Notes: generated from the letters alone by a model not told the origin. Counted from the first letter of the stretch, positions 7,677 to 30,726 are shown. The stretch is 32,323 nucleotides of DNA from Candidatus Methylomirabilia bacterium (GCA_041493245.1 JBGPYK010000002.1:1-32323), one strand, 5' to 3'. A program made the numbers and translations.

Positions 7677-8444
7677 TCAGCGCAACCGCTCGATCGACAC
7701 GTCGGCGGGGATCGTGAGCCGGAAGCGTTCGTCGTCGATGCCCGCGCCGACGACAGGGTTCCGGTAGCGCACGCTGCCGGTCACGTTGCCCTGGGCGGCC
7801 CAGAGGTCGAAGCCCGTGAGGGAGCCGTCGGGACCGCGATGGTAGGTGACCCTCGCCTCCAACCTCCCGCCCGTGATCTCGATCTGGCTGACGATTCCGG
7901 TGGCGAAATCCATCCACACCCGCTGGCGGTGCAGGGCGCCGATCAGCTCGACCGAGGAGCCCTGCGCGTCGGGCGGCAGGATCTGCGCGACGCGCAGATC
8001 CTTCGGCGGCACGGCGTGGCCGGCCAGGGCGCCGATGAGATCCTCGGGGTCGACGGGCAGGCTCAGGAGCCGGGCTGCCGTCTCCGCCGTGGCCGGCCCC
8101 ACGACGGCTTCGTGGGAGACGGCGTTGTAGGCGGTGATCTGGCCCTCGTGGATCGTCACGAGCAGCAGGGGCTGCCCGAACGGCGAAAGGCCCTCGAAGC
8201 GGATGGACGCCGGTCCCTTCAGCAGGAGCGCGCCGGTGAGCTGCTGCGTATCGCCTCCGCGCTCCACGCGCACGTCGGCCAGCGTGCGGAGATCGGAGAA
8301 CTCGTGCCAGCGCGCGACGAGCAGCGCGATCGCGCGCCGCGCCTCCTCGTTCACGGGCTCGCGCGGTGGCGGCAGCGCGATCGCGCAGCCCCCGCCCAGC
8401 GAGAGGATCAGCAGGAGACTACTGAGAAGCCTTCGGGCGCTCAC
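7677..8444 (-). CDS. Lipoprotein, LolB-like / DUF4292-like (outer-membrane lipoprotein localisation family, tentative)
   Basis: It has a signal peptide with a lipobox: MSARRLLSSLLLILSLGGGC. The position directly upstream of ispE-prs mirrors the lolB-ispE-prs synteny of Proteobacteria. The function call rests on synteny and size. Confidence 0.5.
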   Translation of the reverse strand: MSARRLLSSLLLILSLGGGCAIALPPPREPVNEEARRAIALLVARWHEFSDLRTLADVRVERGGDTQQLTGALLLKGPASIRFEGLSPFGQPLLLVTIHEGQITAYNAVSHEAVVGPATAETAARLLSLPVDPEDLIGALAGHAVPPKDLRVAQILPPDAQGSSVELIGALHRQRVWMDFATGIVSQIEITGGRLEARVTYHRGPDGSLTGFDLWAAQGNVTGSVRYRNPVVGAGIDDERFRLTIPADVSIERLR

Positions 8445-29849: not shown

Positions 29850-30356
29850 ATGGCCGGTGACCTGCCCTTCCTCGAACGGCTCGCCCAGCTCCCCGCGGTG
29901 CCTGCCGCCTCCGCCGTCGCGCTCCTCGAGCGACTGCCCAACGTCCAGCGCGACCCGGTGATCGGGCCGCTTTTTGGCGTGGACGAGGAGGGCGACACGG
30001 TGGTCAACCCGCTGACCCCCGCCGTGCTGCAGCAGTTCCAGCAGAAGCCGGAGCTGACGTGCTATGCCGCGCTGCTCGAGGGGCTCACGGGGATCTGGAA
30101 CGCGGCCGTCCGCGCCGCCGTCGTGGCGCGGCTGCGCGCCGCGGGGTTGCCGCCCGACGACCTGCTGCTTCGCCTGCAGGCGCTGTCGCCGACGCTCGGG
30201 TTCGCCAAGGAGACGGGCGAGTGGAGCCGGGGGTGGCTCGCCGATCCCTTTACCCAGGACGCGCTCCTCGTGCAGCAATGCGTCGTGCGCGTGCTGTTTG
30301 CCCTGCGCGGAATGGCGGAGACCCGCGCCCAGGAACTGACCACGCAACAAGGCTGA
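29850..30356 (+). CDS. Hypothetical protein, no recognisable domain
   Basis: 168-aa ORF. Third-position GC is very high in this frame. The SD GGGAGGA ends 6 nt before the ATG, and the start is 3 nt after the MFS stop. I recognise no motif. Confidence 0.6.
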   Translation: MAGDLPFLERLAQLPAVPAASAVALLERLPNVQRDPVIGPLFGVDEEGDTVVNPLTPAVLQQFQQKPELTCYAALLEGLTGIWNAAVRAAVVARLRAAGLPPDDLLLRLQALSPTLGFAKETGEWSRGWLADPFTQDALLVQQCVVRVLFALRGMAETRAQELTTQQG

Positions 30357-30381
30357 CGCAGGCCCGACATCGGAGGGGACC

Positions 30382-30726
30382 ATGCACGTGCACGAGCGCA
30401 ACGCGGAGAAGAAGCGGGTGAACGGGCTGATGCTGCAGTCGTCGATGAAGGTCTACCGCGCCTTCGGGGAACTGGGCCGGCAGGTCTTTGCCGACGGCGC
30501 GCTGTCGAAGAAGCAGAAGGAGCTGACGGCGCTGGCCGTCGCCGTCTCGCAGAACTGCTTCGACTGAATCGATCACCGGGTCGAGGAGGTCCTCGACCAG
30601 GGGGCGACGGACGCCGAGATTGCGGAGACGCTCGACATCGGGCTGATCATGGGCGGGACGCTCGCGGTGAAGTCCGCGCGCCACGCCTTCGCCGTGCTGG
30701 AGCAGCTCAAGGCCGGCACGCGATGA
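30382..30726 (+). CDS. AhpD-like / carboxymuconolactone decarboxylase family protein with in-frame TGA (probable selenocysteine) at 30565-30567
   Basis: The joined reading is MHVHERNAEKKRVNGLMLQSSMKVYRAFGELGRQVFADGALSKKQKELTALAVAVSQNCFD-U-IDHRVEEVLDQGATDAEIAETLDIGLIMGGTLAVKSARHAFAVLEQLKAGTR. The TGA replaces the second Cys of the family CxxC..H redox motif. The frame stays open with coding-like codon usage to TGA 30724-30726. The track reports only the first 61 aa. Confidence 0.7.
30579..30598 (+). promoter_or_regulatory. SECIS-like hairpin downstream of the in-frame TGA
   Basis: GGTCGAGG-AGGT-CCTCGACC is a perfect 8-bp stem that starts 11 nt after the TGA. Its 4-nt apical loop contains GGU. 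Confidence 0.55.

Follow-up and report, generated by a model that had tools for sequence, protein, structure and literature searches.

The gene at 30382-30726 on the plus strand of a 32,323-nt stretch of DNA (69.5% G+C; hereafter the window) from a Candidatus Methylomirabilia bacterium (GCA_041493245.1 JBGPYK010000002.1:1-32323) very probably encodes a selenoprotein of the carboxymuconolactone decarboxylase (CMD)/AhpD fold, an oxidoreductase of ~12 kDa in which the in-frame UGA at 30565-30567 is read as selenocysteine (Sec) under the direction of a downstream selenocysteine insertion sequence (SECIS) hairpin. The gene is referred to here as CMD(Sec). As read directly in the sequence, ATG 30382 opens 61 sense codons ending ...AVSQNCFD, which are followed by the internal TGA; the same frame is then open for 52 further codons (IDHRVEEVLDQGATDAEIAETLDIGLIMGG...) up to the true terminator of the recoded gene, TGA 30724-30726. 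This layout, and the high third-position GC (GC3) beyond the internal TGA, had been described in a first-pass annotation of this DNA and are borne out, with a measured GC3 of 0.95 over 40 codons on each side of the TGA. For comparison, one genome per species was scanned, 181 genomes were found to encode a relative, and the best 80 of these 181 loci were retrieved; the 81 sequences referred to below are the window plus these 80 loci, not all 181. The parts of the gene are as follows:

30372..30376, plus strand: Shine-Dalgarno-like GGAGG, 5 nt 5' of the ATG, read directly in the sequence
30382..30726, plus strand: full recoded coding sequence of the putative CMD/AhpD-like selenoprotein, 114 codons (113 residues plus Sec62)
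30556..30558, plus strand: TGC, Cys59, first residue of the CxxU motif; an invariant Cys (TGC in 72 and TGT in 9 of 81 sequences)
30565..30567, plus strand: in-frame UGA, predicted Sec62; TGA in 81 of 81 sequences, in the second-Cys column of CxxC
30574..30576, plus strand: CAC, His65, at U+3; His in 81 of 81 sequences (CAC in 58, CAT in 23)

The 80 loci are nearly all labelled Methylomirabilota, Rokubacteria or NC10, the few others probably being mis-binned metagenome-assembled genomes (MAGs), and tblastn matches to the relatives pass through the stop, running from residue 1 to ~112 at 65-89% identity. The internal column is TGA in every one of the 81 sequences, and the orthologous full-length frame is kept in 80/80 loci. 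In ungapped codon alignments, the non-consensus fractions at codon positions 1, 2 and 3 are 0.046, 0.035 and 0.226 in the 27 codons before the TGA, and 0.085, 0.057 and 0.267 in the 44 codons after it. This position-3-biased variation beyond the TGA indicates that the downstream half is translated in frame and is under purifying selection, and in combination with the invariance of the TGA it excludes a pseudogene, as the first-pass annotation had already argued, as well as a truncated protein or a sequencing error. The existing GenBank and JGI annotations do stop at the TGA, giving 62-63-aa "carboxymuconolactone decarboxylase family" proteins, and TGA is an ordinary stop in these genomes, as would suit a pseudogene or a true 61-aa truncated protein with the downstream frame as a relic. 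Such a reading is scarcely credible, however: the 44 downstream codons are selected like the upstream half in 81 sequences of 65-89% identity, the frame is open to the conserved end in 81/81, the Pfam domain described below needs both halves, and a 61-residue product would be without the second redox residue, the His and half of the fold. An error for TGC or TGT in the window can be dismissed outright; although there are a singleton contig with CGA (L083) and proteins with L, C or G in the TGA column, the TGA at 30565-30567 is found in 81 of 81 assemblies, independent of one another and drawn from many studies and sequencing platforms, with neither Cys codon seen there.

Hardly easier to believe is a split gene, in which residues 1-61 and 63-114 are made separately and then assemble. 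The C-terminal half has been called in the databases as separate open reading frames (ORFs) of 47-57 aa (e.g., P0131 and P0147), and in 10 of the 81 sequences the TGA is followed by GTG, which could serve as a start; but in the remaining 71, including the window (ATC), the codon in this place is not a start, no Shine-Dalgarno sequence precedes it, the break would cut the CxxC-H active-site helix mid-way, and the conserved hairpin of SECIS geometry would be left unexplained. A reassignment of TGA in the genetic code was also considered and rejected, as TGA ends 57/81 orthologues of CMD(Sec) and stops 11 of the 19 confident window genes; the recoding is local.

The same pattern is found in the protein databases. 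A protein search over 5.8 billion proteins yielded 284 homologues, and most of the best 120 of these 284, which were examined, are 62-63 aa in length, match the query over its first 53-54% only, and terminate in ...NCFD. When 1.84 billion cluster representatives were searched exhaustively, the close family proved to comprise N-terminal fragments, separately called ORFs for the C-terminal part, and a single deletion variant; the closest full-length proteins there share only ~29-44% identity with the window protein, and no Cys orthologue above ~50% identity was found among these representatives. The CMD(Sec) protein appears on this evidence to be obligately UGA-encoded within the clade.

The fused 114-aa product matches the Pfam CMD profile PF02627 at 63.6 bits (cutoff 23; E = 1.7e-17), with residues 24-103 aligned to profile positions 3-82 of 84 in a match that spans the TGA, and it also passes the TIGR00778 ahpD_dom model (32.2 versus a cutoff of 27.8); the earlier description of the product as an AhpD-like/CMD core is upheld by the PF02627 match. 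A phmmer search of PDB sequences gave ungapped, full-length alignments to five entries (E = 2e-13 to 1.5e-6), namely Thermotoga maritima TM1620 (1VKE and 1P8C; E = 2e-13), 7Y4R, Pseudomonas aeruginosa AhpD (5DIK) and 3BEY. In 5/5 of these solved homologues C59 and position 62 fall on both Cys residues of CxxC, in motifs such as RCDDCIRYH and QCPGCIGFH. These matches settle the fold and the alignment of the motif. Most of the distant full-length homologues read C-x-x-C-[IV]-x-x-H in the aligned columns, the TGA column again being the second Cys. Homologues thus carry Cys in the UGA column, forming the Sec/Cys pair, and the alignments place the TGA at the second redox Cys, where it had been predicted to fall. 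The motif as a whole is C59-x-x-U62-x-x-H65 (Cys59-Phe-Asp-Sec62-Ile-Asp-His65, with Sec62 as predicted), in which the His is one residue nearer than in the CxxCxxxH of the family. Across all 81 sequences, within the run U-I-D/E-H-R, the His is at U+3 and an Arg occupies the usual His column (U+4), whereas Cys-type relatives have their His at C+4. The AhpD hallmark of a conserved His four residues past the second Cys, the CxxCxxxH proton relay, is therefore absent, a subfamily variation which leaves membership of the domain unaffected. Of the redox motif first proposed, the position of the TGA at the second Cys stands, and the motif itself has to be corrected from the family CxxCxxxH to CxxUxxH.

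A hairpin, GGTCGAGG-AGGT-CCTCGACC, is located at 30579-30598 of the window, with 11 nt separating the TGA from the stem and 19 nt separating it from the loop. Two extents of this structure are distinguished:

30580..30597, plus strand: conserved core of the candidate SECIS, a 7-bp stem (30580-30586/30591-30597) with apical loop AGGU (30587-30590); minimum free energy (MFE) -10.7 kcal/mol
30576..30601, plus strand: extended hairpin of the window, with an eighth pair (30579:30598) and a 2-bp lower helix (CC/GG) over a 1x1 internal loop; MFE -16.8 kcal/mol

The 32-kb window contains nine perfect hairpins whose loop is 4 nt and whose stem is 7 bp or longer, giving a ~0.5% chance that one starts within the relevant 18-nt interval. 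The folding energy of the 26-nt hairpin, -16.8 kcal/mol, compares with a mean of -9.0 for shuffled sequences (z = -3.2) and is equalled by 0/200 shuffles, while its 66-nt context is unexceptional (z = -0.97) in DNA of 69.5% G+C. The argument against chance from the window alone is therefore moderate; since the 66-nt fold does not stand out, the argument for the hairpin is carried by the comparative data, and these are decisive. In an ungapped alignment of 72 columns and 81 sequences, all seven stem pairs form in at least 80/81 sequences. The pair 30582:30595 is C·G in 64 sequences, G·C in 15 and U·A in 2, and is broken in none; another stem pair is U·A in 70 and U·G in 10, and the AGGU loop is invariant in 80/81. 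With the named structure 91.3% of cells are paired, compared to 26-54% for slid-partner controls, and its covariation score is reached by 0/500 shuffles, with 17 double-sided compensations at one pair. A single pair accounts for most of the covariation, and five are constant throughout. The compensated pair joins the third base of the Val codon at +5 to the first base of codon +10, and a change of Asp to His (or Leu) or of Asp to Asn at codon +10 is always matched by a silent change of GTC to GTG or of GTC to GTT at Val +5.

The four codons of the stem top and loop, GAG GAG GTC CTC, are each represented by a single codon in 81/81 sequences, against an average of 68% for the commonest synonymous codon in 27 other columns of conserved residues, none of which is fixed. 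The possibility that the hairpin is a mere by-product of conserved amino acids was rejected for this reason, as elsewhere in the gene the same residues are encoded by freely varying synonymous codons. The outer parts of the structure are less uniform: the eighth pair (30579:30598) forms in only 19/80 distinct sequences, and the lower CC/GG pairs form in 79/80 and 73/80 distinct sequences, or in 80/81 and 79/81 when their 3' partners are offset by one column. The 8-bp hairpin originally reported is accordingly real in seven conserved pairs, the eighth being specific to the window.

The published model of the bacterial SECIS (bSECIS) specifies a loop of 3-9 nt, an upper stem of 4-16 bp, a G in the first two loop positions, a UGA-loop spacing of 16-37 nt and an MFE of -7.5 kcal/mol or lower (PMC13188914). 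The present hairpin has a 4-nt loop, a 7-bp stem, a G at loop position 2 followed by another G, a spacing of 19 nt and an MFE of -10.7 (core) to -16.8 kcal/mol, the covarying variants included. The geometry first noted, a GGU-containing loop ~20 nt from the UGA, thus becomes an AGGU loop at 19 nt and is within the bSECIS range, and the published description is joined by compensatory change and frozen synonymous sites in 81 sequences. Selection acts on the hairpin at the RNA level, and its structure agrees with the SECIS model. On the other side of the UGA, the codons at -2 and -1 (30559-30564) are also near-frozen synonymously (TTC in 76/81 and GAC in 80/81); Asp codons elsewhere in CMD(Sec) are GAT in 10-12 of the 81 sequences, and the two near-frozen codons may reflect an upstream-context constraint on Sec decoding.

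A conserved UGA, a coding region downstream of it and a conserved hairpin prove recoding, not which residue goes in. The UGA might be recoded to a residue other than Sec, either to Cys via a SelB-delivered tRNA-Cys(UCA) or by hairpin-stimulated near-cognate read-through (e.g., to Trp), and SelB-dependent Cys insertion at UGA has been documented, going by the entry for Vargas-Rodriguez et al. 2018 in the reference list of PMC13582414; one singleton database protein (P0003) also has Cys in the UGA column. This is nonetheless improbable. The hairpin, down to the G-G/U signature of its loop, matches the SelB-type SECIS model, and the position is that of the redox Cys, a classic Sec/Cys site. Insertion of Cys would be achieved more simply by a TGC or TGT codon, yet neither is found at this position in any of the 81 species-level genomes, and the phylum is reported to be an extensive user of Sec (PMC13188914).

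Against the reading of the UGA as Sec are several further points. The assignment of Sec is a prediction from sequence. The His at U+3 instead of +4 means that the catalytic geometry of AhpD cannot be assumed and may differ from that of the characterised enzyme. When scored against NCBIfam, the fused product reached the cutoff of no curated selenoprotein model (TIGR04169, 44.4 against a cutoff of 120; NF041537, 38.5 against 510; NF041047, 32.6 against 110; NF045649, 21.6 against 380; TIGR01926, 16 against 81.8). A GC3-based screen for in-frame TGA codons in the window and all loci detected no second selenoprotein nearby, and otherwise returned only ordinary junctions of adjacent same-frame genes. 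Rfam gave no SECIS match, either at the gathering threshold over the whole window or at E <= 10 over 30520-30660, and returned only the tRNA-Gln and two chance matches (H19_1 and radC); bacterial SECIS elements are so short and diverse that this result is uninformative. Finally, neither the window nor the 1.13 Mb of related loci yielded selA, selB, selD or tRNA-Sec: tblastn with the SelA, SelB and SelD proteins of E. coli gave no match at E <= 1e-3 in the window plus 80 loci (1.13 Mb), and ARAGORN detected no tRNA-Sec in the window, whose sole tRNA is tRNA-Gln, or in 60 loci, which are without any tRNA. Because these loci represent one syntenic neighbourhood, their lack of sel genes is uninformative about the genomes. 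Backing for Sec use by the host comes from the literature and is at the level of the phylum. A Methylomirabilota MAG with 63 predicted selenoprotein genes has been proposed to hold the largest bacterial selenoproteome (PMC13188914, a 2026 review), Sec-type group 4 hydrogenases occur in Methylomirabilota (PMC13582414, 2026), and selABCD is enriched in genomes with Sec-type hydrogenases (PMC13582414).

If Sec is the inserted residue, UGA62 would not be taken as a stop, and the hairpin lying 13-32 nt downstream, with its 7-bp stem and AGGU loop, would act as a bacterial SECIS. SelB-GTP-Sec-tRNA(Sec) would be expected to bind this hairpin at its AGGU loop as the ribosome arrives at UGA62, so that Sec is inserted and translation runs on to TGA 30724-30726, yielding the full 114-codon CMD-fold protein of ~12 kDa in which Sec62 would stand in for the second Cys of the family CxxC. 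In Mycobacterium tuberculosis AhpD, the second Cys of CxxC is the nucleophile, and Sec would therefore be found at a spot where a gain in rate is expected. By analogy, Sec62 may attack a disulfide or a peroxide-derived substrate, with Cys59 resolving the product as a selenenylsulfide, and C59-x-x-U62 may cycle between the selenol/thiol and selenenylsulfide states in thiol-disulfide or peroxide-linked redox chemistry. The geometry of the proton relay may differ on account of the shifted His. TM1620 and 7Y4R were each deposited with six chains, and by the same analogy the CMD(Sec) protein may form a hexamer.

The earlier statement that AhpD-like proteins are an established selenoprotein family agrees with the literature, where they have been known since 2005 (PMC1088965, PMC13188914). 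The 2005 Sargasso Sea survey reported AhpD-like (27 sequences) and CMD-domain (4 sequences) CxxU selenoproteins (PMC1088965), and PMC13188914 lists an "AhpD-like protein, TIGR01926, CxxU" and a "CMD-like protein, PF02627, CxxU", together with GSU3128, a "distant AhpD homolog", and AhpD-domain fusion selenoproteins. Like the AhpD-like and CMD selenoproteins of the Sargasso Sea and Global Ocean Sampling (GOS) sets, the predicted protein has the PF02627 fold and a CxxU motif with Sec for the second Cys, the SECIS hairpin is close 3' of the UGA with a G in its apical loop, and Cys homologues are widespread; unlike them, it is found in soil and groundwater Methylomirabilota/Rokubacteria and not in marine bacteria, and it has its His at U+3. 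It does not belong to the TIGR01926-type AhpD-like subfamily (16 bits versus 81.8). It resembles GSU3128 (NF041047) as a small, single-domain AhpD-related CxxU protein with local similarity over residues 40-91, but differs from it in scoring 32.6 against the required 110. The best NCBIfam matches, all far under their cutoffs, are TIGR04169 (arsenosugar biosynthesis-associated peroxidase-like), ArsM_AhpD_UU (NF041537) and MduS (NF045649), which are likewise CMD-type domains occurring as selenoproteins; in contrast to these, CMD(Sec) has no arsenic, radical-SAM or methyltransferase context, its neighbours being MFS, unk168 (a gene of unknown family, described below) and ABC-F genes. Judged by profile score, the gene is related to the NF041047, TIGR04169, NF041537, NF045649 and TIGR01926 families and is a member of none. 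The solved small CMD proteins (1VKE/1P8C, 7Y4R, 5DIK and 3BEY) are similar in size (96-145 aa) and place C59 and U62 on their CxxC, but they use Cys and CxxCxxxH, as opposed to the CxxUxxH found here with an Arg in the usual His column. The hairpin shares with the E. coli fdhF-type SECIS and the bSECISearch model its position in the coding sequence just 3' of the UGA, a small loop of G then G/U, and the 19-nt spacing. The fdhF-type SECIS carries a bulged U, whereas the helix here is a perfect 7 bp with no bulged U, its sequence is unrelated, and its binding by SelB is a prediction. The deep-Sep and BSepDB papers contain no mention of Methylomirabilota or of the CMD(Sec) gene. The predicted protein is a phylum-wide addition to the known CxxU AhpD/CMD selenoprotein class, in a phylum for which an unusual wealth of selenoproteins has already been reported, and as such would not surprise a specialist.

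Natural variants of the gene were found at the UGA itself. A 1.9-kb JGI soil contig (L083:1302-1646) carries CGA (Arg) where TGA is expected, gene and hairpin being otherwise intact, and further database proteins, all singletons, show L, C or G in the TGA column, each one base from TGA; each of these singletons is an error or a rare allele that has lost Sec. Three independent assemblies (L084:698-1060, L085:589-951 and L086:574-903, from ENA, JGI and Logan) share the same 24-nt in-frame deletion, which removes F-D-U-I-D-H-R-V and with it the Sec, the His and the 5' arm of the hairpin; the ORF stays open in all three. Between the two deletion haplotypes 25/93 codons differ, but only 12/93 distinguish L086 from the Sec-containing L073, and possible histories are one old deletion followed by recombination, or recurrent deletion. 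The deletion variants may represent loss of Sec in lineages that lost the machinery. In these three loci a gene for a 68-aa zf-CDGSH (PF09360) iron-sulfur domain lies 5' of the CMD gene (L084:468-674, L085:359-565 and L086:310-516) and replaces unk168 with a neighbour that is again suggestive of redox function; unk168 is also missing from the Sec-containing relatives L072, L073 and L075.

The window as a whole is a housekeeping chromosomal stretch. Its gene order is MutS2, a CitMHS transporter, Pth, Prs, tRNA-Gln, a TPR protein, DciA, an oligopeptide permease, a DEAD/MrfA-type helicase, a 2-hydroxyacid dehydrogenase, GroEL, SSB-S18-L9-DnaB, an amino-acid permease, an AlkA-like glycosylase, an MFS transporter, unk168, CMD(Sec) and an ABC-F ATPase. 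No Pfam family matches a 255-aa ORF on the minus strand (7677-8444) that lies between the tRNA-Gln region and the TPR protein and whose coding signature is strong (GC3 0.90). The 5' neighbour of CMD(Sec) is:

29850..30356, plus strand: unk168, a co-oriented 168-aa gene of unknown family

The order MFS-unk168-CMD(Sec) is conserved, with unk168 directly upstream in 66 of the 77 loci that have enough sequence, and ABC-F is downstream of CMD(Sec) in 55/75 loci. The gap between unk168 and CMD(Sec) is 26 nt in the window, with a median of 15 nt, and the two genes overlap in some genomes. Residues C70 and C143 of unk168 are conserved in at least 95% of its orthologues; the protein has no Pfam or NCBIfam match, and its ~1,400 homologues are all annotated as hypothetical. 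The unk168 gene is a probable operon partner of CMD(Sec). By inference, its product is also a plausible redox partner or substrate of the CMD(Sec) protein, and the substrate of the latter may involve the unk168 protein, with its two conserved cysteines. Methylomirabilis/NC10-type loci differ in context, and the NC10-clade locus L079, with an amidase and a CBS-domain protein on the opposite strand, offers no functional clue. A more far-reaching reading, which we hold only tentatively and consider doubtful, is that CxxUxxH marks a distinct, obligately Sec-dependent CMD subfamily, confined to Methylomirabilota, lacking any close Cys orthologue in public data and operating as a two-gene redox module with co-transcribed unk168. 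If true, this would amount to a new selenoprotein/partner system, beyond another AhpD-like peroxidase accessory, and one in which the SECIS visibly constrains the protein, with VEEVL fixed and the Asp-to-His/Asn changes coupled to the silent Val change.

The first-pass annotation had taken CMD(Sec) to be most likely a case of Sec recoding missed by standard gene callers, and the TGA in 81/81 sequences, the selection on the downstream half and the conservation of the hairpin support this. The gene is systematically mis-annotated, as N-terminal fragments of 62-63 aa (GenBank, JGI, ENA and Logan) plus orphan C-terminal ORFs. The latter appear as independent 47-57-aa "proteins" (P0131, P0147, P0158, P0191, P0201 and similar); P0131 and P0147 begin at residue 63, the gene callers having taken the GTG that follows the TGA in 10/81 genomes as a start. 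No current NCBIfam selenoprotein model rescues the gene, and a dedicated model would fix its annotation in at least 181 species-level genomes. Labels are also affected: L063 (DASRWT010000027.1), L012 and L040 carry the Rokubacteria-type gene and flanks but are filed as "Candidatus Nitrosocosmicus sp." (an archaeon) and "Candidatus Binatia", probably through MAG binning errors. Among the stronger protein matches are three giant proteins with 6-7 CMD-domain matches each (P0121, 1161 aa; P0123, 852 aa; and P0150, 1355 aa), an unusual arrangement of multiple CMD repeats.

The finding leaves knowledge of Sec decoding and of the AhpD/CMD family unchanged. It provides a clean example of overlapping RNA and protein constraint, in which the SECIS freezes synonymous sites and couples amino acid replacement to silent change, and it gives the selenoproteome of Methylomirabilota/Rokubacteria, a common phylum of soil and groundwater, a further well-supported member.

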